Source of the DNA: Shigella virus Moo19
Reading direction: 5' to 3' (one strand)
Length of the DNA: 64,000 nucleotides
Sequence record: MZ358387
Shown: one piece after another, positions 1 to 49,372 of the stretch
How the letters are laid out: the number at the start of each line of letters is the position of its first letter
Position numbering within the stretch: the first letter of the stretch is position 1
Program-made: the position numbers and the translations under genes
The notes under the pieces: model-generated
What the model saw: only the letters and a program-made list of their open reading frames with translations
Databases searched by the model: none
What the model was told of the DNA's origin: nothing

Positions 1-215
1 TGATGGTGACGATGTGATTCTTGCTGTACCCCGCCCAGTGGCTAGTGGCGGGACCGATTAACTAAAGGGCTTTCCACCTCCTTACCCGTTTAGCTAAAGG
101 CTAATAACTACCACAGTCAGGGTTCCTCGGCTCCTTTGACTTAAGACTGCAATCTTAAGTTTAACGGTACATAAGTACCTAGAGGGATGAACTGACCCGA
201 TACTGAAGTCGGTCA

Positions 216-252
216 GGGGCATAGTCGAGAGGCTATGCCCCATTTCTTTTTA
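216..252 (+). terminator. Stem-loop (9-bp stem ggggcatag/ctatgcccc, 8-nt loop) followed by T-rich tract, just upstream of first ORF
   Basis: Inverted repeat read directly; atttcttttta follows. Confidence 0.4.
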
Positions 253-263
253 TAGGAGCTATC

Positions 264-674
264 ATGGACATCTACGGTCTTGATATAGAAACACAGACAC
301 AAAAGAAAGAAGCTGACCCATACGTGATAGGTTCAGCTCAGTTCTTCGCCACCATCTTTGGTAACAAACACGCTATCCTTCTCCCAGATTGTGAAGAATC
401 CCACGAACTAGTAGGTTGCTGGCTGTTAGACAACATCCCACTAACCACTCGTATCATGAAGCAAGGTGAGACTATCATCTACAATCTGGAAGACTATGGA
501 ATACAAGAGGATGGTCAGTACACATGGATGCCACCTACTTACTTTATTCCACTGCCTGACTGGGAACTCATAGCTTCTCACGACGTATTCAAAAGGCAGA
601 TTGCTATCTACTTCCGTCCACGCCCTACCTGGAGAAAGAATCCATATGCAAGTCCAATTAATCTGTCGCAGTGA
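264..674 (+). CDS. Hypothetical early protein, member A of tandem small-ORF paralog family (SHELVGCWLL motif)
   Basis: ORF track; aggag RBS at 255-259; shares H-E-(V/L/F)-x-G-x-L-L motif with downstream ORFs. Confidence 0.4.
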   Translation: MDIYGLDIETQTQKKEADPYVIGSAQFFATIFGNKHAILLPDCEESHELVGCWLLDNIPLTTRIMKQGETIIYNLEDYGIQEDGQYTWMPPTYFIPLPDWELIASHDVFKRQIAIYFRPRPTWRKNPYASPINLSQ

Positions 675-1011
675 TAAAGATTCTGATGTAGTAAACGCAT
701 TAGAAATTCCATTCGACTTCTTTAGTCATGAGCTACACCTGAGCCAAGTAATCCTGGTTCCCTCCCTTGAGCATTATCATGAAGTTCAGGGGCAACTGTT
801 AATCAATGGTGTGACTGCTAAAGTAATCTGCATTCTTCCACCATCCCAATATCAGCCACCAGTTGGAAGTGTTCCTTATGCACTAGTCACTGATGACTAC
901 GTTGCTAAGTGTGACCCACTGCCTAATGTTGGTAAGTACAACGATACTTTAAATCTTACTTATTATTTCGAGAAGAAAGATGCAGCTACAACTAACGAGG
1001 TTCATGAGTAA
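646..1011 (+). CDS. Hypothetical early protein, paralog family member B (YHEVQGQLLINGVTAKV)
   Basis: ORF track 601-1011; first in-frame ATG beyond most of the overlap with upstream ORF is 646. Confidence 0.4.
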   Translation: MQVQLICRSDKDSDVVNALEIPFDFFSHELHLSQVILVPSLEHYHEVQGQLLINGVTAKVICILPPSQYQPPVGSVPYALVTDDYVAKCDPLPNVGKYNDTLNLTYYFEKKDAATTNEVHE

Positions 1012-1288
1012 CCCTCATAACTTATCTCTAGTGCACCCGGACGCAGAACCTTATCTATTAAGTGACGTTGGTTATGTACTCAGCGGTGAGTCCAAAGTCG
1101 TTATGCTTACCAGTGAGTCAGCTAACCTATTCCTCGTTGAGTGCATGATGCGGGGTGTCAATGCTGATATCACCCTCAAGGAACCAGGTGAGAAAGTATA
1201 TGGTGGCCTGCTCTGCTACTTAATACATAGTCCGCATGAGTATCCTGACTACGATAATGATGGTTATGTCTGGATAAGGAGGCCGTAA
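1004..1288 (+). CDS. Hypothetical early protein, paralog family member C (ends WIRRP)
   Basis: ORF track 980-1288; ATG 1004 overlaps upstream stop (ATGAGTAA). Confidence 0.45.
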   Translation: MSNPHNLSLVHPDAEPYLLSDVGYVLSGESKVVMLTSESANLFLVECMMRGVNADITLKEPGEKVYGGLLCYLIHSPHEYPDYDNDGYVWIRRP

Positions 1289-1563
1289 TGTTTGCCTATT
1301 TTGTACGCTCTACTTACGATGCCTACCACGGTATGCTATCCATCAAGTTAGAAGTAGGGCAACACTGGCCTACTTTTGAACCAGGAACAGCAGCTATTTG
1401 GGTTCATCCTGACATAGACTTTCATGAAGTACAGGGTGACCTGTTACTTCGGGGTAAGACAGCTAAGCTGATGGAATGTCCTCCGAACTATCGAATAAAA
1501 GAGAGTGGCATATTCATCCTGGCTCATAGTTACAGTAATGCACTGGAGTTACTGCGTCCATGA
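1288..1563 (+). CDS. Hypothetical early protein, paralog family member D (FHEVQGDLLLRGKTAKL, ends LLRP)
   Basis: ORF track; start overlaps upstream stop (TAATG). Confidence 0.5.
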   Translation: MFAYFVRSTYDAYHGMLSIKLEVGQHWPTFEPGTAAIWVHPDIDFHEVQGDLLLRGKTAKLMECPPNYRIKESGIFILAHSYSNALELLRP

Positions 1564-1922
1564 ATCTCTTCCTAATACCCCCTATGTCCTGTAATCCGCT
1601 TAAGCTGGTGGGCGAACAACCTACCTGGGATAGACTTGGCGTAACTAAAGAGACTGTCCTGTATGAACCAAGTGAAGAAGCACACGAGTTCATTGGTCAC
1701 TGTCTCATGATAAGTAGTGAAATACAGTTCAAGTCTCTTGCTGAACCAGTAGAAGTAAGGGAACAGGATAAGGTTTATGTAATAGGGCATCACTATCCTG
1801 ATGTATGCACCACCTTACAGGGCAGGCTTATCAGGCTTACTGATGAGAGTACCTGCATCCAGTGTACCTGCTATCACCCCTGCCCTTCTTCAAAGAAGGT
1901 TATCTACCCACTGGATATCTAA
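1560..1922 (+). CDS. Hypothetical early protein, paralog family member E (AHEFIGHCLM), Cys-rich C-terminus
   Basis: ORF track; ATGA overlap with upstream gene. Confidence 0.45.
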   Translation: MNLFLIPPMSCNPLKLVGEQPTWDRLGVTKETVLYEPSEEAHEFIGHCLMISSEIQFKSLAEPVEVREQDKVYVIGHHYPDVCTTLQGRLIRLTDESTCIQCTCYHPCPSSKKVIYPLDI

Positions 1923-2210
1923 ATGAATCTTACTAAGATACACGTTACTCCTACTAAGATGGTTAACTGTCCTATAACTAAAAAGTTATTTACTGTATCC
2001 AGTGACATACTCATTCTTGTACCAGACCTGGATAGCTTTCATGAAGTGAAAGGACAGGAGATGTTACTCAATAAGAAATGGGAAGTTCATCTACTTGAAC
2101 CAGGAAAGGAACTTAGGTGGCTGGGTATGTACAGTCCCTGGCATCTTAATACGGATAGCTACCGTCTTACCTTTACTGACCATATTGCTGTATATACTCC
2201 ACGCCCCTAG
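1923..2210 (+). CDS. Hypothetical early protein, paralog family member F (FHEVKGQEMLL, ends YTPRP)
   Basis: ORF track; tttcatgaagt nucleotide motif shared with members B and D. Confidence 0.5.
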   Translation: MNLTKIHVTPTKMVNCPITKKLFTVSSDILILVPDLDSFHEVKGQEMLLNKKWEVHLLEPGKELRWLGMYSPWHLNTDSYRLTFTDHIAVYTPRP

Positions 2211-2245
2211 CTCCTCAAACATAACTGCTTATAAAGAGTAACCTC

Positions 2246-2434
2246 ATGGATAATATTGCATTAAAAAACTACCGTACTGCTATTCAAGCCATAGAGCTTA
2301 TTAAAGCAGAGGTAGAAGTAACCTTTGGGTTACACGTAGGAACAGACCCAGAACCAGAAATAATGGTGGAAGCTTATAACATTGTTCTGGCTATACGTGC
2401 AGGTTATAACAGGCTATGCGAAGCATCTAAATAG
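2246..2434 (+). CDS. Hypothetical small protein (62 aa)
   Basis: ORF track only. Confidence 0.3.
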   Translation: MDNIALKNYRTAIQAIELIKAEVEVTFGLHVGTDPEPEIMVEAYNIVLAIRAGYNRLCEASK

Positions 2435-2480
2435 GAGGTATATAATTACCCTCTATCTAATATTTTTGCATGTCAAAATG

Positions 2481-2593
2481 GTGATAGCTACTTGTGATAG
2501 CTGTGGTGTGGCAGGGGCTACACCCTTACACGTTAACTACCCCCCCGGTATGTTGACTCATGGGTGTACTACCCTACCCCACCTTACACGTTA
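2481..2593. repeat. Intergenic direct repeats: gtgatagct x2 (2481, 2494) and ccttacacgtta x2 (2524, 2582), plus repeated ctaccc runs
   Basis: Read directly from sequence. Confidence 0.6.
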
Positions 2594-2595
2594 CA

Positions 2596-2608
2596 CATGC
2601 TCCGCATG
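2596..2608 (+). promoter_or_regulatory. Tri-loop hairpin catgc-TCC-gcatg (bottom strand GC-GGA-GC); candidate N4-type vRNAP early promoter hairpin
   Basis: Perfect 5-bp stem, 3-nt loop; same core as hairpins at 3584 and 7442; upstream of ORF 2652. Confidence 0.35.
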
Positions 2609-2651
2609 GTATGGACATGTCGTCCTTATCATTAACTATTGGAGCTATACA

Positions 2652-2972
2652 ATGACTACTACTGCTAACGTACGTATGACTGCTGGAACTTTACTGGGTA
2701 CTGTAAATGAAGCAGCTACTACTATTGCTGATACCTTTGGTACTGCAACTAAAGCTGTTGGTATGCTGAACTCATATGTCACTACTATGAGTGAGAAACA
2801 ACGTATTCGTACTAAATTGGAAATGCATACATTTACCAATAAATTAGCTGAAGAAACAGCTATGCAAGATACTATCCGTAAGAAAGCTATCGTAGAATTC
2901 TGCAAAGATGAAAAGAATGCTGAACTCTATAAAGCATCTTACGATGATGTAATGGCACTGTTATCTAAATAG
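2652..2972 (+). CDS. Hypothetical protein (106 aa)
   Basis: ORF track frame 2382-2972; ATG 2652 has ggag RBS 8 nt upstream; upstream part of track ORF is repeat-rich intergenic DNA. Confidence 0.4.
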   Translation: MTTTANVRMTAGTLLGTVNEAATTIADTFGTATKAVGMLNSYVTTMSEKQRIRTKLEMHTFTNKLAEETAMQDTIRKKAIVEFCKDEKNAELYKASYDDVMALLSK

Positions 2973-2981
2973 TAAAATAAC

Positions 2982-3010
2982 GGAAGACTCCTTGGAGTCT
3001 TCCTGTTTTA
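2982..3010 (+). terminator. Rho-independent terminator (9-bp stem ggaagactc/gagtcttcc, loop cttg, then tgtttta)
   Basis: Read directly. Confidence 0.6.
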
Positions 3011-3013
3011 AAG

Positions 3014-3032
3014 ATTAGATAGTCAATCTAAT
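3014..3032. promoter_or_regulatory. Palindrome attagat-agtca-atctaat containing 14-mer ttagatagtcaatc (second copy at 3529-3542)
   Basis: 7-bp inverted repeat read directly; lies just after a terminator and upstream of ORF 3063. Confidence 0.4.
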
Positions 3033-3062
3033 TTGAATAAATAGTTAAAAGAGAATCCTACT

Positions 3063-3209
3063 ATGAGCAAACTAAAAAACGCATTTATCCTGATTGTCAG
3101 TATCCTTGCACTTGTTACTTTGGTTTCCGTTCACATTGGAAAACCTCTGGTAAACACTGACTATGGTAATGGTCAAAAAGTAAAATCCATCCTGTTAGCG
3201 GATAAGTAA
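3063..3209 (+). CDS. Small putative membrane protein (48 aa, MSKLKNAFILIVSILALVTLVSV...)
   Basis: Hand-translated; hydrophobic N-terminal segment; below the 60-aa cutoff of the ORF track. Confidence 0.3.
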   Translation: MSKLKNAFILIVSILALVTLVSVHIGKPLVNTDYGNGQKVKSILLADK

Positions 3210-3276
3210 AAACCGCATCTAGAAACTGGGCTGTTCCACAGCTTACGGATACATTTCAACCAATTAGGAGGCATCC

Positions 3277-3492
3277 ATGAACGTAGAAAATATCCGTATA
3301 ATTGAGAATTGCTTTGGTGATAAACCAGTAGACCTCAGCAACGCAAGAAGGTCTACAGATGAAGAATACAGAGAGTTTTTATCCTTACTCGATGAATATC
3401 ATATGCAAGGGCATGTTGAATTACATGCCCATCTGCATAACTCAGGCTACTTCATGGATAAACTGGAAGCTGAGACAGGCTGTCCATTCTAA
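3277..3492 (+). CDS. Hypothetical protein (71 aa)
   Basis: ORF track; strong RBS aggagg upstream. Confidence 0.45.
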   Translation: MNVENIRIIENCFGDKPVDLSNARRSTDEEYREFLSLLDEYHMQGHVELHAHLHNSGYFMDKLEAETGCPF

Positions 3493-3499
3493 GTAAAGC

Positions 3500-3526
3500 A
3501 TTCCCTCTTAGGAGGGAATTAGCCAT
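3500..3526 (+). terminator. Terminator-like hairpin (attccctc-ttag-gagggaat)
   Basis: 8-bp inverted repeat read directly; weak T tract. Confidence 0.4.
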
Positions 3527-3528
3527 CT

Positions 3529-3547
3529 TTAGATAGTCAATCAAAAG
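3529..3547. promoter_or_regulatory. Second copy of 14-mer ttagatagtcaatc in an imperfect palindrome
   Basis: Identical 14-mer to 3015-3028. Confidence 0.4.
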
Positions 3548-3583
3548 TAGATTGTGATTCTACTTTAGTTCAACTTCAAAACC

Positions 3584-3600
3584 AAGACGCTCCGCGTCTT
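3584..3600 (+). promoter_or_regulatory. Tri-loop hairpin aagacgc-TCC-gcgtctt (7-bp stem); candidate vRNAP early promoter hairpin
   Basis: Perfect inverted repeat; GC-TCC-GC core shared with 2596 and 7442. Confidence 0.35.
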
Positions 3601-3705
3601 AAGGATGTATGAGTGCATCCAATCCTGTATGAAATCTTAGTCCTTTGTTTGGGTATGTTCACCGACGAGCGTACCCATAAATCACATTTATCTGGAGAGT
3701 ATAAA

Positions 3706-4089
3706 ATGTCTATTAAAACTTTTGGTCAAACTTTCGGTTCTGCTGTTGCTAACAAACCTGCTGCAACTGAACGTCCTAAAGCTAAATTCTGGCTGAACGT
3801 TGGCTATACAGCTAACGAAGGCACAGAAGAAGCTAAGTTCATCTCACTGCCTACTGGTATTCCACTGGATACTCAGGAGCATGTAAGCACTAAGTCCAGC
3901 AATGCTGACTTCCGTGCTATGCGTTGTGCTCAGAACGACCTGCTTGACCAGCTTCTGGCATTTGCAGAAGGTCTGGAACCAGGTGAAGAAGGTGTCATTC
4001 AACTTCAGGTTCAACTTCGTCGAGTCAAAGAAGAAGAAGCTGACATCCCAGCAGACGAGAATAAATATGCTCGTAAGCTGACTTTCTAA
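3706..4089 (+). CDS. Hypothetical early protein (127 aa)
   Basis: ORF track frame 3613-4089; ATG 3706 with ggagag RBS; followed by strong terminator. Confidence 0.5.
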
Positions 4090-4098
4090 TCACTAACT

Positions 4099-4127
4099 GG
4101 ACTCCCTTCGGGGAGTCCTTTTATTTT
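4099..4127 (+). terminator. Rho-independent terminator (ggactccc-ttcg-gggagtcc + T tract)
   Basis: Read directly. Confidence 0.7.
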
Positions 4128-4232
4128 AACTCAGCGATAAACTAAGTTTAACTTTTAGGAGCTTTTCGACGAAGAGTCACTAAAACTTAAACGTAAACAC
4201 AAGCAGATAACTTAGAGTAAGGAGTAATCAAG

Positions 4233-4418
4233 ATGCGTGTACTATGTAACCGTTATAATCCGACTAGGTTAATTAACATAATGGCTATGTATGGTAGCAA
4301 GATGGCTTATGATGCTCGTTGGCAGGTATCTGTAGAAGATAGAGATGGTCAGCATTATGACCACTACTTCACAGCTAAGCCAACTCGTAAACAAATCCGC
4401 AAACTTCACAAAGGATAA
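4233..4418 (+). CDS. Hypothetical protein (61 aa)
   Basis: ORF track; RBS taaggag upstream. Confidence 0.4.
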   Translation: MRVLCNRYNPTRLINIMAMYGSKMAYDARWQVSVEDRDGQHYDHYFTAKPTRKQIRKLHKG

Positions 4419-4422
4419 TGCT

Positions 4423-4575
4423 ATGAAGCTACTGGCAGAGATTCTATGTATTTTATTAATGATACTGCTGGTAGCTGCATTTCCGTGGCTATTAGCCGTA
4501 GGCGTAATTATTGGCATGTTCGCAGCCGGAGTGAATGATGCTCGTGGCAGAGATGAACCAGGTGGAGACGTATAA
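4423..4575 (+). CDS. Small membrane protein (50 aa, MKLLAEILCILLMILLVAAFPWLLAVGVIIGMF...)
   Basis: ORF track frame 4345-4575; ATG 4423 with aagga RBS; hydrophobic. Confidence 0.4.
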   Translation: MKLLAEILCILLMILLVAAFPWLLAVGVIIGMFAAGVNDARGRDEPGGDV

Positions 4576-4576
4576 C

Positions 4577-4657
4577 ATGGCCTATGTAATCATAGTTGTT
4601 GCGTGGTTAGCTGTTGGTGTATTCGTAGGTATGGCATTCGGGAGAATGGCTAAATGA
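4577..4657 (+). CDS. Possible tiny hydrophobic peptide (26 aa, MAYVIIVVAWLAVGVFVGMAFGRMAK)
   Basis: Hand-translated; tightly packed between neighbours; speculative. Confidence 0.2.
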   Translation: MAYVIIVVAWLAVGVFVGMAFGRMAK

Positions 4658-4845
4658 TTGAATTTAAGGTAGGCGATATAATTGAACCAATAGAGGGATT
4701 CCCACAGTGGAAAGGTATAACAATACTTGAGTGGAATCCTATTACTCGTGATGCCTCAGTTAAGCTTAAATCCGGTACTGTTATACATGGTTTTAATCTA
4801 GACCCTGACTATGGAGTTGAATTCAAATGCGTAAGTCCATCTTAA
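4654..4845 (+). CDS. Hypothetical protein (63 aa)
   Basis: ORF track; ggag RBS. Confidence 0.4.
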   Translation: MIEFKVGDIIEPIEGFPQWKGITILEWNPITRDASVKLKSGTVIHGFNLDPDYGVEFKCVSPS

Positions 4846-4989
4846 TGGGAACCAGAGAAGATGTTATTAAGCGTCGTGCTAAACAAGTTACTGCTCAATC
4901 AGTGCCTGTTACTGGTTATAGTAGAACATATAACAGTAAGCCTAAGCAGTATATCGTAACTTTCAATCATCCTTGTATTCAATAATAGT

Positions 4990-5017
4990 GGCTCCCATTA
5001 GGGAGCTTCTATTTTTT
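4990..5017 (+). terminator. Terminator (gctccc-atta-gggagc + T tract)
   Basis: Read directly. Confidence 0.5.
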
Positions 5018-5031
5018 ATTTAGAATAGTTA

Positions 5032-5062
5032 GTCCCGAAGGGACAATCTTACGAAGTAAGAT
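5032..5062 (+). promoter_or_regulatory. Two adjacent GAA tri-loop hairpins (gtccc-GAA-gggac; atcttac-GAA-gtaagat)
   Basis: Perfect inverted repeats read directly; function unknown. Confidence 0.3.
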
Positions 5063-5095
5063 TAGACATAGATAGATATAGGAGAAACTATTAAA

Positions 5096-5404
5096 TTGTT
5101 AAATGAAATCATCTGTATTCCACAGAATAAGGCTCGCATTGCAGATAGGAATATTCGTATTCATCTGCCAATGCCATTAGCTAACCCATTCAGTAAGTCT
5201 GAAAGACTGAACCAGGATGATGTAGATGTGGCTTATGAGGCATATCTGCGTAATCGTCTTATCTCAGGCGATAAGCTAATCACTGCTGAAATGGAAAAGA
5301 TTGCAGGCTTTGTCATGGACAAAACAGGCAAACCTGTAGGACTGATAGGCAATGAGCCAGAGGTAAATGTAATACGTAAACTTATTATGGAGGCTATTGG
5401 ATAA
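5096..5404 (+). CDS. Hypothetical protein; N-terminal half resembles DUF4326-type motif (LANPF...AYEAYL) seen in ORF 6220
   Basis: ORF track (non-ATG start at 5096 implied); start uncertain. Confidence 0.35.
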   Translation: MLNEIICIPQNKARIADRNIRIHLPMPLANPFSKSERLNQDDVDVAYEAYLRNRLISGDKLITAEMEKIAGFVMDKTGKPVGLIGNEPEVNVIRKLIMEAIG

Positions 5405-5625
5405 TGATTCTTAATCCTAATTACCGTACATGTGAAATATGTGGTAAACACAGGGCTAAGGGAAATCATAATAAGTGTTCACGTATACTACAGAAGCAAC
5501 GTAATAATGCTGAACAAGCATTAATATTAGAGAACCAGAGGAAACACGAAGAGTACATCTCTGTTCGTAAGGCTTCTCTAAACAAATTTAGAAGGAAACC
5601 ATTTATACGTATAAGTAAAGGTTAA
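5404..5625 (+). CDS. Hypothetical basic protein with CxxC...H...C (possible zinc-binding)
   Basis: ORF track; composition. Confidence 0.35.
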   Translation: MILNPNYRTCEICGKHRAKGNHNKCSRILQKQRNNAEQALILENQRKHEEYISVRKASLNKFRRKPFIRISKG

Positions 5626-5627
5626 CT

Positions 5628-5912
5628 ATGAAAGTAATCACCTATCCTACTCATAAAATAGCACTCTACATGGGACAAAAAGTAGAAGTTCCATTATGGG
5701 TTAAATATTTAGCAGTACTTCCAATGATGTATGGTCATTCAAGTTCTGCACTAATTGGCTTCAGCCATAAACCCAAATTCACTAAGACTGGTATTTGGAA
5801 AATATCATCTCAGTATAAGAACACTAAGCAGGAACAAATAGGCATAGTCCGTAACTTTGCTCCTGCTAAAAATGAAATTGAAGCTACTCTAAGTGAGGTT
5901 CTATTACCATGA
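5628..5912 (+). CDS. Hypothetical protein (94 aa)
   Basis: ORF track. Confidence 0.4.
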   Translation: MKVITYPTHKIALYMGQKVEVPLWVKYLAVLPMMYGHSSSALIGFSHKPKFTKTGIWKISSQYKNTKQEQIGIVRNFAPAKNEIEATLSEVLLP

Positions 5913-6223
5913 CTACCATCGTAGTATTGCATGACACCACATTCAAAGATGTGGATAAGATGATGAACAATATAGACTATGTTGCTCAGCATTCTAAAGC
6001 ATTCAATGGGGAGTTCACTATTTATTGTGAACCAGAATCTCCATTGGCTCCTGTATTAAAAGAAGCAGGGCTTCCGTTCAGTACTACTGACTTCCCAGAA
6101 GAACCTGACTTCGTTATCTCATTCATCTACGATTTACACGACGGTTCTAAAGCCAGTGAACTGGCAATGAACCAGTGGAAGTCTCGCCGTCCTGTATGGC
6201 CTTTCCAGGTACTGAAACCATGA
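5909..6223 (+). CDS. Hypothetical protein (104 aa)
   Basis: ORF track; ATGA overlaps with neighbours. Confidence 0.4.
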   Translation: MTTIVVLHDTTFKDVDKMMNNIDYVAQHSKAFNGEFTIYCEPESPLAPVLKEAGLPFSTTDFPEEPDFVISFIYDLHDGSKASELAMNQWKSRRPVWPFQVLKP

Positions 6224-6600
6224 AGACTATCTCATTAGGTGACGATACCAATGCTTTGCTGGGTGTAGCTGCACGTCCAATCATCATTGTTAATAAACAT
6301 CATGGTAAACCGGGTGAGTATATTGGACGTGGTTCACCATTGGGTAATCCATACCCAATTGGTGATAAATACAACCGTCAACAAGCTATTGCTATGTATC
6401 GTGTCTGGCTGCAAGAACAGATTGATAAAGGTAATCCAGTTGTACTGGATGAACTTAATCGTCTGGGTAATAAAGCCATTGACGAAAAAGGACTGGCCTT
6501 ACAGTGCTTCTGTTATCCGAAACCATGTCATGGTGAGGTTATTAAAGAGAAGCTCGTAGAGGCTATGTACAACTACTTTGTGGAGAATCCAAATGAGTAA
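6220..6600 (+). CDS. DUF4326-like protein (GRGSPLGNPY ... CFCYPKPCHGEV)
   Basis: Motifs GNP and C-x-C-x-P-x-P-CHG recalled as DUF4326 signature; ATG 6220 overlaps upstream stop. Confidence 0.5.
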   Translation: MKTISLGDDTNALLGVAARPIIIVNKHHGKPGEYIGRGSPLGNPYPIGDKYNRQQAIAMYRVWLQEQIDKGNPVVLDELNRLGNKAIDEKGLALQCFCYPKPCHGEVIKEKLVEAMYNYFVENPNE

Positions 6601-6787
6601 GCAATGTAAATGTGGTAAAGGCTATGTATCCCAATGGGATGATAAGTGTGGTAAATGCCGAACCAAGAAGGAACAGCGTGACCATCAAATAGCTTTAAGG
6701 GACTTAGACCTGTATATCGCAGGTCGTCCAGAATTTAATATGACTCCACAAGAAGCCTATAAAGGCTTAAGGAAACTGTACAAATGA
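6593..6787 (+). CDS. Small zinc-ribbon-like protein (CKCGKG...CGKC)
   Basis: ORF track frame; ATG 6593 with ggag RBS; two Cys pairs. Confidence 0.4.
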   Translation: MSKQCKCGKGYVSQWDDKCGKCRTKKEQRDHQIALRDLDLYIAGRPEFNMTPQEAYKGLRKLYK

Positions 6788-7167
6788 AAGAAATATTCGT
6801 ATTCGGTTCTAATCTGGCTGGTGTACACGGTGCTGGTGCAGCTAAGACTGCATATAAGAAGCACGGTGCTCGTTGGGGTATGGGCGTAGGCCATTATGGT
6901 TGCAGCTATGCAATTCCAACTAAAGACCAGAACATCAAAACAATGGAGTTGGTTGATATCGCTGTATTTGTATCTGCCTTCATCCTGTATGCAGCAGCAC
7001 ACCCAGAGTGGGACTTCAAAGTAACACGAGTAGGTTGTGGGCTGGCTGGCCTGTCTGATAAAGACATGGCATTCATGTTCTTACCTGCAACAGGTAATGT
7101 CATGTTTGATGAAGCATGGAAACCTTATTTAGGTGATACCTATAACTACTGGGGTACATTCGAATGA
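6784..7167 (+). CDS. Gly-rich Rossmann-like motif protein (FVFGSNLAGVHGAGAAKTA...GCGLAGL); possible nucleotide-binding (SLOG/macro-like?)
   Basis: Motif only; family assignment uncertain. Confidence 0.35.
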   Translation: MKEIFVFGSNLAGVHGAGAAKTAYKKHGARWGMGVGHYGCSYAIPTKDQNIKTMELVDIAVFVSAFILYAAAHPEWDFKVTRVGCGLAGLSDKDMAFMFLPATGNVMFDEAWKPYLGDTYNYWGTFE

Positions 7168-7436
7168 CCTATGAAGAATTATGGGCTGCTCAAGTAAGAA
7201 GTAAGGCGAGAGCCTTTGCTCATGTCTACAGCACATTGCAGCATCTTATTAAAAGCAGAACCAAAGCTGGACATATACATGGTTACTACAAAGAAGATTG
7301 TATTCCCGATGGTGACTACCTATGGGATAAAAGAATCCGTCACGAGAGTGACATTATAAAAGTGAATATTGCTATTCATTCATACCCACCAAGGGGTAAT
7401 CGCTACCTATCTATTCACTTTTATACAAAGCGTTAG
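7164..7436 (+). CDS. Hypothetical protein (90 aa)
   Basis: ORF track. Confidence 0.4.
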   Translation: MTYEELWAAQVRSKARAFAHVYSTLQHLIKSRTKAGHIHGYYKEDCIPDGDYLWDKRIRHESDIIKVNIAIHSYPPRGNRYLSIHFYTKR

Positions 7437-7441
7437 GTAAT

Positions 7442-7460
7442 AGCTGCTCCGCAGCTTTTG
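7442..7460 (+). promoter_or_regulatory. Tri-loop hairpin agctgc-TCC-gcagct followed by TTTT; candidate vRNAP promoter hairpin or short terminator, 30 nt upstream of RNAP II genes
   Basis: Perfect 6-bp stem, TCC loop; same GC-TCC-GC core as 2596 and 3584. Confidence 0.35.
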
Positions 7461-7488
7461 GTCATTAATCATATTTAGGAGATATGCG

Positions 7489-8307
7489 ATGTACTCATCT
7501 ATTGAACATCAGAAGCAACTGGAAACTCTGTTTAACAAGAATCAACTAATTCCTCGTATGAGGAAAGAGTTCGAGGACTCCGAAGAAATCCAATTCACTA
7601 AGTATTTTGAGCATATTGGCATCGACCCCAAACTGGGTATTGATGCAATGGTGCAAATTGCTCTGCATAAACGTGCTGACATTCCTACTATGGTTGGCTC
7701 ACTCATGAGTCACAGTCAGGATGCTCAGTACATAGCAGACACTCTGCTTAAGATGGCAGAGCACGACTGCTTTGACTTCGACCCAAGTATCGATAAGTTC
7801 ATCGTCATCTATGAAATCAGTGATGATGTACAACTGGAACTGGAAGCATTCCAGTATCCACTGCCTATCGTCAGTGAACCGAGAGAGGTTAAAGATAACC
7901 GTGGCTCAGGTTACTGGAATACCAAAGGCAGTATCATCCTCAAGAAGAACCACCATGAAATGGATGTGTGTCTCGACCACATTAACCGTATGAACAATCA
8001 ACGACTCAGCATCAACTGGGACGTTGCCAAGTTCGTCAAAAACTCATGGGCTAACCTGGATAAACCTAAAGAAGGGGAATCCCGTCAGGACTTTCAGAAG
8101 CGTGTACGTGCATTCGAGAAATACGACCGTACAGCAAAAGACGTTATGGAACTGGTGACTAAAGAAGGTAACAACTTCTCACTTGACCATAAGTATGACA
8201 AGCGTGGACGCACCTACTCACAGGGCTACCACATTAACTATCAAGGTACTAGCTGGAATAAAGCTGTTATCGAGTTCGCTGATAAGGAGTTGGTAAACGA
8301 TGAGTAG
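7489..8307 (+). CDS. Phage RNA polymerase II small subunit (N4 gp15-like)
   Basis: 272 aa; lies upstream of a T7-like RNAP C-terminal-half homolog; N4-like organisation; strong RBS aggag. Confidence 0.55.
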   Translation: MYSSIEHQKQLETLFNKNQLIPRMRKEFEDSEEIQFTKYFEHIGIDPKLGIDAMVQIALHKRADIPTMVGSLMSHSQDAQYIADTLLKMAEHDCFDFDPSIDKFIVIYEISDDVQLELEAFQYPLPIVSEPREVKDNRGSGYWNTKGSIILKKNHHEMDVCLDHINRMNNQRLSINWDVAKFVKNSWANLDKPKEGESRQDFQKRVRAFEKYDRTAKDVMELVTKEGNNFSLDHKYDKRGRTYSQGYHINYQGTSWNKAVIEFADKELVNDE

Positions 8308-8587
8308 GAAAGAATTTAAAGCTATTGCTCAAACCAGTGGTGGTATGGGCACATTAGCACTAGGAGAAGACGGTACAGTACTGTACACGGCTTACGACGT
8401 ATTATCTGGCAAAACAGTAACAGTATGTCTGTTCTTTGATGTAAATACTTACATGTCACTGGAGAATGCTTTCTCAGATTTCAGCAATGTTATGCGTAAT
8501 CGTGACCAGAAAGCTGACTTAACTCCGGCTGACAAAGACTTCCAGGCAATCCTCAATGACCTGAAGAAACCAGGCAAACTTCATTAA
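8300..8587 (+). CDS. Hypothetical protein between the two RNAP II subunit genes
   Basis: ORF track. Confidence 0.4.
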   Translation: MSRKEFKAIAQTSGGMGTLALGEDGTVLYTAYDVLSGKTVTVCLFFDVNTYMSLENAFSDFSNVMRNRDQKADLTPADKDFQAILNDLKKPGKLH

Positions 8588-8636
8588 TTAACCCATATGC
8601 GTGTTCCATACAGGAACCAGATGCAGGAGTAATAAA

Positions 8637-9854
8637 ATGCAAACTTTTACCGCTAAACAGTACCTGGCTATCGATATCGCTAACAACTTTGGTCTGGATA
8701 AGAAGACCTGGGATGAGCGTTTGGCCTGGTTCGATGAGAACAAAGACAACCTCATGAACCAGTTAGAAGCAGCAGAGGAACCTGCTCTGTATTATGCAGG
8801 CGTTAAAGCCTATGAAGACATGCTGGCTGGTAAGCCTATTGGTTATACCATTGCACTGGATGCTACTGCATCTGGTCTGCAATTACTGGCATGTCTGACT
8901 GGTGACCGTAAGGCTGCTCAGTTGTGTAACGTAGTGAACTACTATGGTAGCGAAGGCAAGGCTCGTCGTAGCGATGCCTACACCGTTATCTACCGTACCA
9001 TGCTGGAAGCCGTAGGTCAGTCTTCTCGTGTTAAACGTGATGACTGTAAGCAGGCTGTAATGACTGCATTCTATGGCTCAGAAGCTAAGCCTAAAGAAGT
9101 GTTCGGTGAAGGTATTCTGTTGAAGACCTTTGAACACGTAATGGGTATCGAAGCACCTGGCCCGTGGGAACTGAACAAGTTCTATCTGCAATGTGGTAAC
9201 CCGGATGCAACCTCATATTTATGGGTTCTGCCGGATAACTTCCATTGTCAGATTAAGGTAATGGTTGACGAAGTACAGACCATTAACTTTATGAACAAGC
9301 CATATGACATCATTCGCAAAGTACAGGGTACTGAAGAGAAGACTCGTATGCTCTCTGCTAATACCACTCACTCAATTGATGGAATGGTAGTGCGTGAGAT
9401 GCTGCGTCGTTGTAACTATGATGCTGACCTGATTACCTATGTAAAACAGCTTTGCTATGGCGTACAGGAATCAAATGTATTCCTGCCAGAAAACGCTGAA
9501 ATGGTGCATGAGTTATGGAACCACTATGAACGTAGTGGTTTCCTGTCCATGCGTATCTGCGATTATCTGGATGCAGGCTCCATCGCTCTGGTTGACCGTC
9601 AGGTCATCCTTGAGATGCTGGAGACTCTGCCTAAGAAGCCATTCAAAGTACTGACTGTACATGACTGCTTCCGTTGCCATCCTAATTATGGCAATGACCT
9701 GCGTCGTCAATACAATCAGATTCTGTCTGACATTGCTAAATCCAACCTGCTGTCATTCATTCTGTCTCAGGTACTGGGACAAGAGTTCACTGCTGGTAAG
9801 CTGGACAATGACATGTGGAAAGATGTCTTAGACGCTGAGTACGCATTAAGCTAA
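8637..9854 (+). CDS. Phage RNA polymerase II large subunit, T7-like single-subunit RNAP catalytic half (N4 gp16-like)
   Basis: Motifs DATASGLQ (motif A-like), KQAVMTAFYGS (motif B-like), TVHDCF (motif C-like); ATG 8637 with aggag RBS (track ORF starts 8601). Confidence 0.75.
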   Translation: MQTFTAKQYLAIDIANNFGLDKKTWDERLAWFDENKDNLMNQLEAAEEPALYYAGVKAYEDMLAGKPIGYTIALDATASGLQLLACLTGDRKAAQLCNVVNYYGSEGKARRSDAYTVIYRTMLEAVGQSSRVKRDDCKQAVMTAFYGSEAKPKEVFGEGILLKTFEHVMGIEAPGPWELNKFYLQCGNPDATSYLWVLPDNFHCQIKVMVDEVQTINFMNKPYDIIRKVQGTEEKTRMLSANTTHSIDGMVVREMLRRCNYDADLITYVKQLCYGVQESNVFLPENAEMVHELWNHYERSGFLSMRICDYLDAGSIALVDRQVILEMLETLPKKPFKVLTVHDCFRCHPNYGNDLRRQYNQILSDIAKSNLLSFILSQVLGQEFTAGKLDNDMWKDVLDAEYALS

Positions 9855-9857
9855 TAT

Positions 9858-9895
9858 GAGCCTCATACCTTCGGGTATGGGGCTTATTTTTTTCG
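9858..9895 (+). terminator. Rho-independent terminator (catacc-ttcg-ggtatg extended, then ttattttttt)
   Basis: Read directly. Confidence 0.6.
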
Positions 9896-9911
9896 AATTG
9901 AGGACACAACT

Positions 9912-10733
9912 ATGCCTGAGTTAAAAGTTGCTTTTAACAAAGACACCTATGTAGCTACCGTACTGGATGCCAGTGGTAGCGTTCCGAGTGGTTCTGTGAA
10001 CGTAGGTACTTTCTTCCATCCTGATGAGACTTACCCTGATAGTTATGTTATCTATCATGGTGTTCGTGAACTCCTGTATAAGCGTTCTGAAGTTGACCCG
10101 GCACAACCAGGCTTCTGGCCTGAGAACATTACCAACATGCAAGCTGTTACCATCGATAACAAGGCTACTGCACGTCTGGTACTGAATACCTCCCTACCTC
10201 GTGTAGTATCTACCATCGAAGGTGGTAAGGTTACTCTGTCTGTTGTTGCTCTGGGTGGTAAGGCTCCTCTTAAATACAAGTGGGAGTTCCGTGCACCTAA
10301 TGCTTCAACCTGGACTGCTGTATCTGGGCAGACTACTGCTAATCTGGTTCTGGATAATATCGATGCTGATAAAGCAGGTGAGTATAAAGTCACCGTTACC
10401 GATGCTGCCGGAACCAGTGTAGATAGTACTGCTCTGGTAGCTGTGGGTGCTTATCCACCACCAGCACTGACGGGCATTAAGGCTACGCCTACTTCCCTGT
10501 CTCTGTCTGTAGCTACTGACGCTGCTGGTAAAACTGTAGCTCTGTCTGCTATCCCGACTGATGCTGAACTGGGTACATTGTCTATTAAGACTGCTCCAGA
10601 TTCTGCTCGTGCTACTGCTACTATTTCTGGTTCTACTCTGACTGTTAAACCAGTGGCTGCTGGTGCTGCAACTTCTGTTGTAGTAACCAACGGTAAAGTT
10701 GATGTGACTATCACTATCAACGTTGCAGCATAA
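9912..10733 (+). CDS. Ig-like domain protein; probable capsid decoration protein (N4 gp17-like)
   Basis: Ig-like sequence features (GEYKVTVTDAAG; Big_2-like C-terminal repeats); position after RNAP II genes. Confidence 0.5.
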   Translation: MPELKVAFNKDTYVATVLDASGSVPSGSVNVGTFFHPDETYPDSYVIYHGVRELLYKRSEVDPAQPGFWPENITNMQAVTIDNKATARLVLNTSLPRVVSTIEGGKVTLSVVALGGKAPLKYKWEFRAPNASTWTAVSGQTTANLVLDNIDADKAGEYKVTVTDAAGTSVDSTALVAVGAYPPPALTGIKATPTSLSLSVATDAAGKTVALSAIPTDAELGTLSIKTAPDSARATATISGSTLTVKPVAAGAATSVVVTNGKVDVTITINVAA

Positions 10734-12295: not shown

Positions 12296-12646
12296 ATGGA
12301 AAAGAACCGCAGGAAGACACTCATTGAGCGTCTGCTTGCCCGTATCAAGATAATGGATATGGGCTATACCGTTAATGGTCAGCCAAGCCTATGCCACATC
12401 TGGACTGGTTCCCACTCTGGGAATGGTCGAGGTGGTCAATATGGCAGGATTTCCGTGAATGGAGTTACCTCTGCTACACATATTGTGGCCTATACCCACT
12501 ATCACGGTTACATCCCTTGCAAAATGCAGGTAGACCATCTCTGTAATAACCGTCTGTGCTGTAACCCGGAACATCTCGAACTGGTGACTCACCAAGAGAA
12601 CCAGAGAAGAAGAGCTGCACGCCAAACTAAAGGTAAAAAGAAATGA
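12296..12646 (+). CDS. HNH homing endonuclease (HNH_3 type)
   Basis: Motifs CHIWTGS...GYI...VDHLCNNRLCCNPEHL...HQEN; ATG 12296 downstream of terminator. Confidence 0.7.
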   Translation: MEKNRRKTLIERLLARIKIMDMGYTVNGQPSLCHIWTGSHSGNGRGGQYGRISVNGVTSATHIVAYTHYHGYIPCKMQVDHLCNNRLCCNPEHLELVTHQENQRRRAARQTKGKKK

Positions 12647-34322: not shown

Positions 34323-35078
34323 ATGTCCGAAGAATTAGTCGCCAATGACATGAACACACAATTGATTCTGATTGCTGGGTTCTCTGCGAGTGGTAAATCA
34401 GCGTCACTCCGTAACTTACGGAACCAAGAACGCTGGTTGTATCTGAATACCGAAGCAGGTAAACGTCTGCCATTCCGTAACAAGTTTCAGTCCTACAACA
34501 TCGAAGACCCGTATCAAATCTGGGAAGCGTTCGATGCTGCATCACCTGGTGGTGATATGGCTAATGACATTGATGGCATCATCATTGACTCAGCCACATT
34601 TATGATGGATATGCTGGAATCCCAGTATGTACTTCCATCAGCAAACACCCAGAAAGCCTGGGGGGACTTTGCTCAGTTCTTCAAAATTCTGCTTCAGCAG
34701 AAGGTTGTTAAGTTTGGTAAGCCAGTGATTATCACGGCTCATGCCAAAGACGAACTGGACGAAGCAGCAGGTATCATGAAGACGTTCATTCCAGTGAAAG
34801 GTTCGCTGAAGAATAACGGCCTGGAAGCATACTTCTCAACTGTCGTTTACGCAGAGCGTGTAGACATTAAGGAACTAGAGAAGTATGGCAATAAGATGCT
34901 GGAGATTACGGAAGAAGAACGTGACTTAGGTTATAAACACGTATTCCAGACTCGCCCGACTAAGAAATCTGTCGGTAAGCGTCTTCGTTCACCAATGGGT
35001 ATGTTCGAGAAGTCAGAGACTTATATCGATAACGATGCCCAGAAACTGCTCGACCACCTGGCTGAATACTACGCTTAA
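34323..35078 (+). CDS. RecA-fold P-loop ATPase (Sak4/AAA_24-like)
   Basis: Walker A GFSASGKS; acidic DSAT motif; position next to SSB. Confidence 0.45.
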   Translation: MSEELVANDMNTQLILIAGFSASGKSASLRNLRNQERWLYLNTEAGKRLPFRNKFQSYNIEDPYQIWEAFDAASPGGDMANDIDGIIIDSATFMMDMLESQYVLPSANTQKAWGDFAQFFKILLQQKVVKFGKPVIITAHAKDELDEAAGIMKTFIPVKGSLKNNGLEAYFSTVVYAERVDIKELEKYGNKMLEITEEERDLGYKHVFQTRPTKKSVGKRLRSPMGMFEKSETYIDNDAQKLLDHLAEYYA

Positions 35079-37484: not shown

Positions 37485-37566
37485 GGGGGAGTAGTCAAGC
37501 GGTCGAAGACGGCAGACTGTAAATCTGTTATCCCACACGGTAGTTCGAATCTACCCTCCCCCACCA
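37485..37566 (+). tRNA. tRNA-Tyr (anticodon GTA), 10-nt variable region, CCA encoded
   Basis: Hand-folded cloverleaf: acceptor GGGGGAG/CTCCCCC, T-loop TTCGAAT, anticodon loop CTGTAAA. Confidence 0.65.
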
Positions 37567-37567
37567 C

Positions 37568-37642
37568 GGTAAGTTAGCTAATTGGTGAAGCGGCTGACTG
37601 TTAATCAGTGATAGAGTGGTTCGAGTCCACTACTTACCGCCA
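37568..37642 (+). tRNA. tRNA-Asn (anticodon GTT), CCA encoded
   Basis: Hand-folded: acceptor GGTAAGT/ACTTACC, T-loop TTCGAGT, anticodon loop CTGTTAA. Confidence 0.7.
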
Positions 37643-37647
37643 CATTA

Positions 37648-37724
37648 CGGAGTTTAGCTCAGTCTGGTAGAGCATCTGCTTTGGGAGCAGAGGGTCGTAG
37701 GTTCGAGTCCTGCAATTCCGACCA
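37648..37724 (+). tRNA. tRNA-Pro (anticodon TGG), CCA encoded
   Basis: Hand-folded: acceptor CGGAGTT/AATTCCG, D-arm GCTCAGTCTGGTAGAGC, anticodon TGG. Confidence 0.7.
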
Positions 37725-37730
37725 AACAAT

Positions 37731-37806
37731 TAGGGGTTAGTTCAGTTGGTAGAACATCGGACTTTGATTCCGAATGTCACAGGTTCGAATCCTGTACCCC
37801 TTGCCA
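37731..37806 (+). tRNA. tRNA-Gln (anticodon TTG), CCA encoded; position 1-72 is T-T (unpaired)
   Basis: Hand-folded: D-arm GTTCAGTTGGTAGAAC, anticodon loop CTTTGAT, T-loop TTCGAAT. Confidence 0.6.
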
Positions 37807-38840: not shown

Positions 38841-38872
38841 AAAGCCCCTCTAATGAGGGGCTTTTTTATTTT
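38841..38872. terminator. Bidirectional terminator (aaagcccctc-taat-gaggggctt flanked by A-run and T-run) between convergent + and - transcription units
   Basis: Read directly; T/A tracts on both sides. Confidence 0.7.
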
Positions 38873-41800
38873 AGTTTACCAGATTCATCCAAGGGTTGAG
38901 GTTATGAGCACGTAAGCCCTGACCCAATCCGATAGAGTAATCCAGTCTACCATCAGCAGCAGCCGAGAACAGGTTATCCTGTAATGGCAGACCAACGTTA
39001 CCAAACATGGTAGGAGTTGGAGCCAGCATAGCCATAGCTGCATGAACAGGGTTATTACGAATCATGGACACTGCAACTTTAGTAGAACGAATCTTAAAGT
39101 TATAGAACCACATCAGACCCATGCTTTCCATGTAACCACGGAAACGACCCGGCAGACGGTCATAGTTAATGAACTCTTCGGTAACACGACCCAGAGCTTC
39201 TTCCTTACTCTTACCTTTACGCTTAGTCAGTTCATCATAGATGATTGCTTTAGCAATAAAGTCAGAGTACTCAACCGTCTTCTGGATACCCTGGAACAGA
39301 GCAGTATCCTTAGTGATAAGTGCATAACGACCAGCAGTTTGCAGCTTCTTAGGCAGCTTATCTGCTAAACGCTGCATGTACTCCTGTACCTTACCATCCG
39401 GGATTAACAGGTCATCACGAGAGATACCAGCATCAGCAATAGAAGAGAACTCACCAGCTTCCAGCAAAGGCCAGATACTCATACGCTTATAGCTATCATT
39501 GATGGACTGAATCTCAGCTTTCAGTTTACGAGCCTGGTTCGGATTAGTAGTTGCACGAAGTTCTGCTTCAGCATCAACCTGGCGAAGACGAGACTTCATA
39601 TACTGGTTAATCTCAGCAGTCTTCTGAGGGATACCTTTAGCAATATCCTTAACTGGAACACCACGGGCAACCATCTGATAGAGGTTAGCCAGGAAGTTCA
39701 CAGCAGGAACCACGAGAGACTTGACCACGATTAAGGTCTTAGCCTCACGTACAACCGTCTGAGTGATATTCTCACCCTGCATAAAGTATTTGTATGCACG
39801 GTTGCCAAATACGCCCAGCATTGCTTTCTTGAAGGTATCCAAAGTCTCAGGTGACCAACGAGAGTTACCAGTCCATACATCACCAACAGAAGCAGCACGA
39901 TAACCAAGTGCATCATTCAACATGTCACGACGTACCCACAGTTCACCATTACCAAACAGTGACTCAGCTTTCTGACGAGTTTCTGCATTCATCAGACGCA
40001 TAGCATCAGCAGTAACTGGGTCAAGTTTAGAACCAAGAAGGTTAATGTACTGGCTCTTATTGCTGGTAGAATCTGCCATGTCCTTCTCGTACATAGCGTG
40101 AAGATTTTCAATCAGAGCATCGTTAAACTTCTGGGCTTTAGCTTCTTCTACCTGACGACCTCGCCATACACCAATTGCTTTAGCAAGGTTATCCTCACCA
40201 GCAATGTGAGTCAGCATGTTAGGGTCAATAGAGTGCTCATAAGCAACCACACGACCATTGCCATCATAGATAGGCATCAGTGGTTCATTACCACGTTCAC
40301 CCTTCGCCAGAGCTTTGGTGATACGGTCAACGGAAGGCTTGTCAGTAATACGACCAGCAACCATTGTTCCCATTGTGAAGCCAGTACCAACATCCACACC
40401 ACCAGCAGTATTACGAACGTTCTGGAGAATACCCTGTGAGTATGGAGCACGAGCAGCAACCGGGCTGAAGTAGTAACCACGACTACGAGTACGTTCACCA
40501 GAGCTACCCTGATAACCAGCAATACGAGTGAATGACTTCTCACTCAGTTCGTTAAACTGGCTGTCTTCTGCAACAATCAGGTTAACACCCTGCTTAGTCT
40601 CAGAAGGAATGTAGCCTTTGTAGTGGTTCAAACGAGCACGGTCATCATTCTGTGCTTTACGTTTCTCTTCCACACGCTGGCCTACCAGATAGGAAGTGAC
40701 AAAGTCCATACCTTCGGTTTCAGTCTGAGCCAGGGAAGCTAATGCCTCACGGTCAGCCTGACTCATTGCTTCGATGGCATACAGAGTAATCAGCTTGTCT
40801 AAGGTGTCCACATCAACGGTAGATTTAACGCTGGTACGCTCACCTAACAGACGGGAGATTGCCTCAGCATTACGCAGCAGGTTGTTACCGACAGTACCAT
40901 TAATCATGTACTGAGCCAGTTGCTTAGACTTACGGTTAATCAAAGGCCAGTTACGTCCTGCCTGATTCTGGAGGTCAGCTTCCAGCTTATTAACCAGCTT
41001 ATCCATTTCTTTCTGTGAAGACAGCAGGTCACGAATTTCACCCAGACTCATGGTGTCACGCAGTACAGCAAGGTCAGTTTTACCCATACCAGTGTGCATA
41101 GCTTTCCACTCTGCATCAGTCAGCTTACGGCTGAACTTAGAAGCAATAGTGGTAGGCAGATGCTCACGGAATTGCTGACGGTCAGCCTGTACCTGAGAGC
41201 GAACAGCTTTAATCATGTCATAGACAGAAGCATTCGACTTAGTACGACCTACGATGTCATTAACCAGGTCATAGAAAGGTTGCCATGCTTTTCCCTGGTT
41301 CATTGCAGCCATAACACCCTGTGCAACTTTCTCACCGTTCTTCTCAGTAGCAATAGCAGCTACCAATTGAGCAGCATGAGCAGTTGCCTTAACCAGTGGG
41401 TTCTTAGCATTAGCAGCAACATCACGAGCAGTATCCAGTGTGGCATCAGCCAGACGTTCTACACCATCAACAATATATTGGTTAGCACGGTCAATCATAT
41501 TCCCAGTTGGGGTAGCAACAGAGTCATAGAAGGACTGAGCATTCAGGCTGGATTCCATAATAGTTTCTGCCAGAGCATCAATACCTTCCTGAACGTTAGT
41601 TGCTTTGGTATCACCAGCAACACGCTTGTTCAGGCTATCCATTGCAGCTACGCCAATGTTAGTCAGCATTGCATCAATAGTATTACCGGATGCTTTATCT
41701 GCTTTCATAACAGGCATGTCAGTCAGTACGTTACGTACCTCTTCGCTTACCATTGCCAGACCAACAAAGGTAGGCAGTAAGGAAGAACGACCCTGAGCAT

Positions 41801-49310: not shown

Positions 49311-49372
49311 AGCTTGTTTCCTGTTCAAACTTATATCTATAAGAGAACTCACTGTACATTAAGTGAGGGTAA

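Follow-up and report, generated by a model that had tools for sequence, protein, structure and literature searches.

A stretch of 64,000 nucleotides (nt) of Shigella virus Moo19 (sequence record MZ358387), called the window below, carries three short perfect hairpins near its left side. The window is that of an N4-like (Enquatrovirinae) coliphage. Early transcription in N4 is carried out by the injected virion RNA polymerase (vRNAP) at the hairpin promoters P1, P2, and P3 (PMC4496689). The three hairpins of the window are most probably N4-type early promoters for the virion-packaged RNA polymerase that the phage itself encodes, and a probability of about 92% was assigned to this reading. They had been proposed as candidate vRNAP early promoters in a first-pass annotation, and sequence and orthology to N4 support that proposal.

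Direct reading of the window gave the three perfect hairpins exactly as they had been described, at 2596–2608, 3584–3600, and 7442–7456. The core GC-TCC-GC is common to all of them on the + strand, and the bottom strand reads GC-GGA-GC at every site, as had been claimed. The hairpins are intergenic, lie 29–103 nt upstream of rightward genes, and are all located at 2.6–7.5 kb of the 64-kb window. Their proposed position upstream of rightward early genes was borne out, the downstream genes being homologues of gp1, gp2, and the RNAPII subunits.

The promoter rules of N4 were taken from the review by Lenneman and Rothman-Denes (PMC4496689), which summarises the primary work (Haynes & Rothman-Denes 1985; Glucksmann 1992; Dai 1997/98; Davydova 2007; Gleghorn 2008). 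According to this review, conservation in N4 promoters spans −17 to +1 and includes a GC-rich heptamer, centred on −11, between inverted repeats. vRNAP reads −11A/G, −10G, −8G, and +1C on the template; hairpin extrusion requires a 3′G:C5′ loop-closing pair plus the 3′A and 5′G of the loop; and transcription starts eight nt downstream of −8 (PMC4496689). The published determinants (template −12A, −11G, −10G, −13G:−9C, −8G, and +1C) were present at all three window sites. The loop, template 3′-A(−12) R(−11) G(−10)-5′ or T-Y-C on the coding strand, is TCC in each hairpin. The closing pair (−13G:−9C on the template) appears as coding C...G at all three sites, and the template −8G as a coding-strand C at 2605, 3595, and 7452. 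The stems of 5, 7, and 6 bp and the 3-nt loops agree with the published form (5–7 bp stem, 3-nt loop). Application of the N4 spacing to −8 predicts starts at G2613, G3603, and G7460, where the coding G corresponds to template +1C and is followed by a second G in each case. The distance from loop centre to predicted start is 11 nt, the same as in N4.

The N4 consensus given in the first-pass annotation (−11G in the loop, −8G in the stem) was correct. It agrees with the rules above, with the P2 template oligonucleotide of the 2026 cryo-EM structure, which contains CCAAAAGAAGCGGAGCTTC (PMC13492108), and with the name 'GCGGAGC mini-hairpin' given to the N4 promoter core (PMC13037366). The d(GCGNAGC) mini-hairpin (Hirao et al.; PMC13037366) is extraordinarily stable and has a sheared G:A; GCGGAGC stands on the bottom strand of all three window sites. 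It is a structural motif and not a functional family, other instances being primase or origin signals (PMC13037366).

The window sites were compared with the N4 record. In N4, P1 (gttgc-TTC-gcaac, 90–102, then ttat GGACATG) lies upstream of gp1, P2 (aagaagc-TCC-gcttctt, 557–573, then (tt)tt GGATG) upstream of gp2, and P3 (aagctgc-TCC-gcagctt, 4546–4562, then (tt)tt GGTAATTAAT) upstream of gp15. The aligned window tails are gtat GGACATG at site 1, ttaa GGATG...GCATCCAATCCTGTATGAAATCTTA at site 2, and tttt GGTCATTAAT at site 3; downstream of the third hairpin, both phages read GGT(C/A)ATTAAT. The window sites are orthologous to N4 P1–P3, matching them in sequence and position, and the published core, GC-GGA-GC, does not differ from the one proposed. 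The two phages share the 5–7 bp stem, the 3-nt loop, the heptamer centred on −11, the four-nt spacer, the GG start, and the strand, together with the gene context (gp1, gp2, and RNAPII) and the distance from the left end. P3 of the window is essentially one stem-flank base apart from N4 P3, and the P2 leader is conserved over more than 25 nt. Differences were found in the P1 loop, which is TCC (template GGA) in the window and TTC (GAA) in N4, in the P1 stem (CATGC vs GTTGC), and in the P2 stem (GACGC vs GAAGC). Unlike N4, the window has two extra genes (3063–3492) with a non-canonical hairpin between gp1 and P2.

Nucleotide 1 of the linear N4 record, and likewise of contig L009 (72,917 bp), falls at window position 2509/2510 in the alignment, which indicates that the window is circularly permuted relative to the physical genome. 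The hairpin centres are 93 nt, 1.08 kb, and 4.94 kb from this inferred left end, against 96 nt, 0.57 kb, and 4.55 kb in N4, and lie in the leftmost 10%, as in N4.

Conservation was investigated with 20 IMG/VR loci retrieved with the RNAPII subunit A protein, to which Jgk1 was added. The full consensus was found at 59 sites in 19 sequences (the window, N4, Jgk1, and 16 IMG/VR contigs), all on the + strand, with 1–6 sites per related genome; N4 33000–70153 contained no additional consensus hairpin. The RNAPII-A gene is preceded by one such hairpin, within about 310 nt, in N4 and in 14 of 14 contigs (L003–L016, the IMG/VR relatives with an RNAPII-A amino-acid identity of at least 72%). The 45 distinct sites have seven invariant core positions, except for the permitted C/T at −11, and a T/A-rich spacer from −4 to −1. 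G was present at +2 in all 45, without being a search criterion. The non-conserved stem positions vary across these sites with pairing kept: four Watson–Crick pair types occur at −16:−6 and −15:−7, and two at −17:−5. Compensatory changes were also observed at the orthologous positions, namely CATGC/GCATG vs GTTGC/GCAAC at P1, GACGC vs GAAGC at P2, and GCTGC vs GGTGC vs GCAGC at P3.

The same motifs have been annotated in Klebsiella phage KP8 as putative promoters P1–P4 (Table 1 of PMC6950046); these are the four sites of contig L014 and are likewise in silico predictions. Window P1 also aligns with the P1 sites of KP8 and of a G7C-like relative. KP8, Jgk1, and the IMG/VR contigs L009 and L012 have an identical GCTCCGC core, spacing, and GG start, with 3 to 5 distinct sites per genome; the stem sequences differ, and the window stems occur in several of these phages. 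In the N4-like Pseudomonas phage LUZ7, early promoters that had first been predicted (PMC3715699) were then mapped experimentally by ONT-cappable-seq, as hairpins at which RNA starts with G (PMC9163698). As in the window, the LUZ7 promoters are hairpins; their stems have 4 bp or more, and their 3-nt loop is conserved. LUZ7 differs in being of a distant genus, in its other stem and loop consensus, and in its nine early start sites. The closest relative, Jgk1 (L023), has its P1 hairpin in two identical copies, 500 bp apart (94 and 594), and four further sites.

The occurrence of the hairpins in the window is not random. The heptamer GCTCCGC alone was not enriched (3 vs 2.88 expected; at least 3 in 57 of 100 shuffles), and a composite shuffle test was adopted in place of heptamer enrichment, the latter being non-significant. 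The composite consisted of a perfect stem of at least 5 bp, a GCTYCGC core, and G 8 nt after −8. It was found three times on the + strand and not at all on the − strand, with 0.029 expected on both strands. The maximum in 1000 dinucleotide-preserving shuffles was 1, and none reached 3. Each strand of the window has 124 perfect hairpins whose stem is 5 bp or longer and whose loop is 3 nt. In DNA folding, the three hairpins were predicted on both strands, with energies of −4.0 to −6.5 kcal/mol. The z-score was −3.3 to −3.7 at sites 2 and 3 but no better than −1.5 to −1.9 at site 1, which has the 5-bp stem. A relaxed scan of the whole window (4 of 5 pairs, 2 of 3 determinants) gave no convincing extra sites. 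Its weak matches inside genes at 12410, 34409, 42245(−), 14033(−), 5435(−), and 2421(−) have imperfect stems and were judged to be chance; only the one at 34409 (+ strand) has GG at +1/+2.

A cognate polymerase is encoded by the window. The vRNAP open reading frame (ORF) gave a full-length match to N4 vRNAP structures, and its alignment with N4 gp50 showed 68.5% identity overall and 73% in the mini-vRNAP domain. Mini-vRNAP numbering was transferred with an offset of 997, which was validated by nine of nine N4 residues named in the review falling on the expected amino acids. Eight of the nine N4 promoter-contact residues are kept: K114, R119, W129, K268, K849, K850, D901, and R904. The base-contacting residues K114, R119, W129, D901, and R904 are all conserved (5 of 5), as are the catalytic residues.

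A course of early transcription can be proposed by analogy with N4, and it is from N4 that extrusion of the hairpins, the dependence on SSB, and the positions at which RNA starts are inferred for the window phage. Entry into the cell would begin with the left genome end, accompanied by vRNAP, and the inverted repeats would extrude as cruciforms once host gyrase had supercoiled the DNA. E. coli SSB would melt the top-strand GC-TCC-GC hairpin, and the bottom-strand GC-GGA-GC mini-hairpin, with the sheared G:A in its loop, would persist. vRNAP may then bind the template hairpin through −11G (W129, R119), −10G (K114, D901), −9C (D901), and −8G (R904). The RNA would begin with GTP, at the first G of a GG, eight nt downstream of −8, and the three predicted starts would drive gp1, gp2, and the two RNAPII subunit homologues, that is, the middle-transcription machinery.

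The hairpins could also be intrinsic (Rho-independent) terminators of the upstream genes, acting as RNA stem-loops. A terminator scan called none of the three, yet it found the four terminator-like hairpins listed in Table 1, which are classic in form (7–14 bp stems, tetraloops, and T-runs). Neither site 1 nor site 2 has a T-run, their tails being GTATGG and AAGGAT (TTTGGT at site 3). In favour of termination, site 3 lies 6 nt past the stop codon of ORF 7164–7436 and is followed by TTTTGG; TTTT tails are also found on N4 P2 and P3. Termination leaves unexplained the invariant loop TCC, the GC/GC closing pairs, and the fixed-spacing GG seen at 45 distinct sites, and this explanation was considered very improbable.

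The covariation of the stems bears on another explanation, namely that the hairpins are not promoters in single-stranded DNA but palindromic operators for a regulator binding double-stranded DNA, or elements of RNA processing or stability. Operators are typically inverted repeats, and any read-through RNA would form the same hairpin. The outer stem is free to change while paired (all four pair types at two positions), which indicates that a folded strand is recognised, not the sequence of the duplex. The central TCC is asymmetric and never changes strand, and the N4 orthologues are biochemically and structurally established template-strand hairpin promoters (PMC4496689, PMC13492108). Such a function is extremely improbable. 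The coincidence of three short palindromes, which the chance frequency of GCTCCGC and the many perfect hairpins per strand might suggest, has a negligible probability, being refuted by the composite shuffle test and by conservation of the orthologous positions in 18 other genomes.

Several points weigh against the reading as vRNAP promoters. Promoter function in the window phage rests on homology. One contact residue of N4 vRNAP, K267, is T in the window (residue 1264; 45561–45563); in N4, this lysine lies in the beta-intercalating hairpin and helps to melt the base of long (7-bp) stems. Site 1 has a stem of just 5 bp with a modest predicted stability (z about −1.9), and it has G at −4, where T in close relatives gives those a sixth pair. 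Site 3, with its TTTT 6 nt after a stop codon, may have a secondary terminator role. Because perfect stems were demanded of every site in the covariation set, the percentage of paired positions is a circular measure. Four features do not depend on this selection: the range of pair types, the occurrence at each orthologous position, the bias to one strand, and the +2 G.

The features of the early region and the vRNAP gene are collected in Table 1. The RNAPII subunit genes gave the PHROG matches 'N4-like RNA polymerase' (E 8e-117) and 'RNA polymerase' (E 3e-172). The N4 early products needed for middle transcription are gp1, gp2, and gp15/gp16 (PMC4496689). Within window 1–10000, sigma-70-like matches were depleted (12 vs 25.4 ± 4.7 in shuffles) and terminator-like hairpins were enriched (15 vs 6.4). 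This depletion and enrichment fit an early region that is not read by the host polymerase.

Table 1. Coordinates of the hairpins, predicted starts, genes, and terminator-like elements in the window.
Feature	Position	Strand	Description
P1-type hairpin	2596–2608	+	catgc-TCC-gcatg; 5-bp perfect stem; loop centre (−11) 2602; template CATGC-GGA-GCATG
Predicted P1 start GG	2613–2614	+	By N4 spacing rule; then GGAC-ATGTC-GTCC
gp1 homologue	2652–2972	+	71% identical to N4 gp1
Terminator-like hairpin closing the P1/gp1 unit	2982–3003	+	Intrinsic-terminator scan
Non-canonical hairpin	3230–3242	+	gctgt-TCC-acagc; then ttac, GGATAC; GG at 3247 (predicted +1)
P2-type hairpin	3584–3600	+	aagacgc-TCC-gcgtctt; 7-bp perfect stem; 5-bp core 3586–3598; loop centre 3592
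Predicted P2 start GG	3603–3604	+	By N4 spacing rule
gp2 homologue	3613 (GTG) or 3706 (ATG) to 4089	+	72% identical to N4 gp2
Similar terminator-like hairpins closing later early units	4099–4118, 4990–5007, 9856–9887		Terminator scan
P3-type hairpin	7442–7456	+	agctgc-TCC-gcagct; 6-bp perfect stem; loop centre 7449
Predicted P3 start GG	7460–7461	+	By N4 spacing rule; 29 nt 5′ of RNAPII subunit A gene
RNAPII subunit A gene	7489–8307	+	With subunit B, homologous to N4 gp15/16
RNAPII subunit B gene	8601–9854	+	Likely true start near 8637
vRNAP gene	38871–49352	−	3493-aa ORF; likely true start Met at 49310

The 5′ ends of two predicted transcripts may be structured. The predicted P1 transcript begins with a 4-bp 5′-terminal stem-loop (GGAC-ATGTC-GTCC, 2613–2625), which is kept in N4 and relatives as GGAC-ATGTY-GTCC; in L008, the stem shows a compensatory change to GGAT-GTGTGAG-ATCC. 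The predicted P2 transcript has a 5′ hairpin, GGATG-tatgagtg-CATCC (from 3603), the 3′ arm of which holds a start codon at about +11, GTG 3613 in the window and ATG in 13 relatives. A compensatory stem, GGATT...AATCC, was found in L003 and L005. The codon inside the stem opens an in-frame N-terminal extension of gp2 with protein-level conservation in 14 genomes. With a gp2 start codon at about +11 within the 5′ stem, the P2 mRNA would be nearly leaderless.

The hairpin between gp1 and P2 (3230–3242) was considered as a further site. Its loop, its C at −8 (template G), its spacing, and its GG start are those of a vRNAP promoter, but the loop is closed by T:A, where C:G (template G:C) is required in N4. 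When any Watson–Crick closing pair is allowed, the window has 4 sites vs 0.037 expected, which makes it unlikely that this hairpin is due to chance. It is found 30 nt upstream of ORF 3277–3492, in the two-gene insert common to L009 and L012, and its sequence is identical in these two contigs. A homologue search with ORF 3277–3492 turned up only L009, L012, and the unrelated context L027, which has no hairpin. From its sequence, the hairpin is possibly a variant or decayed vRNAP promoter. Poor extrusion is expected for a T:A closing pair from N4 mutagenesis. It may be a functional promoter for the two-gene insert, although this is less likely than not; if it were, the closing-pair rule of N4 would not be universal in G7C-like phages, and the exception would perhaps be linked to differences such as vRNAP K267T.

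Two abutting + strand hairpins, gtccc-GAA-gggac and aatcttac-GAA-gtaagatt, were observed at 5032–5063, in the gap between the terminator-like hairpin 4990–5007 and ORF 5096. The same layout of 5-bp and 8-bp GAA-loop hairpins, with other stem sequences, occurs in L011 at 3445–3476, inside the gp2 leader. As leftward vRNAP promoters, the 5032–5063 hairpins were rejected: they fail at −8 and +1, and the consensus was unmatched on either strand. The pair could be a small inserted structured element, as yet undescribed, or ssi-like mini-hairpins (CCGAAGG / GCGAAGC).

Over the early region and a central stretch of 24 kb, nucleotide identity was about 80–83% to N4-like coliphages, among them Jgk1, pSb-1, and Bp4 as well as Gamaleyavirus phages such as G7C. 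Nothing nearly identical was present in the phage collection, the nearest recorded relative being about 18% diverged. Window 1–2508 is the right-end cluster of rightward ORFs. The conserved terminus sequence at 2509–2595 (GGGGCTACACCCTTACAC...CCCCCCC...CCTACCCCACCTTACACGTTACAC) aligns from nucleotide 1 of N4, L009, and L014, and a 12-nt direct repeat, CCTTACACGTTA, is present at 2524–2535 and 2582–2593. A homologue of ORF 3277 is present at both genome ends of the 72,917-bp IMG/VR contig (L024/L025), which suggests a terminal repeat of more than 1 kb holding P1 and presumably also the non-canonical fourth hairpin. Four tRNA genes (Tyr-GTA, Asn-GTT, Pro-TGG, and Gln-TTG) lie at 37485–37806, at the end of the rightward block and before the leftward vRNAP and late genes.

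Hairpin promoters of the N4 kind are routinely recognised in this family, and their presence here is unsurprising to a specialist. The understanding of the mechanism is unchanged; the value lies in annotation and in promoter parts for vRNAP-based single-stranded-DNA transcription systems. The natural variant of the closing pair is flagged for attention. The analysis gives an early-transcription map of a divergent N4-like coliphage, with three, possibly four, predicted vRNAP promoters and their start nucleotides. The 45 distinct sites refine the family consensus to an invariant GCTYCGC, GG at +1/+2, a T-rich −4 to −1, and a freely covarying outer stem.

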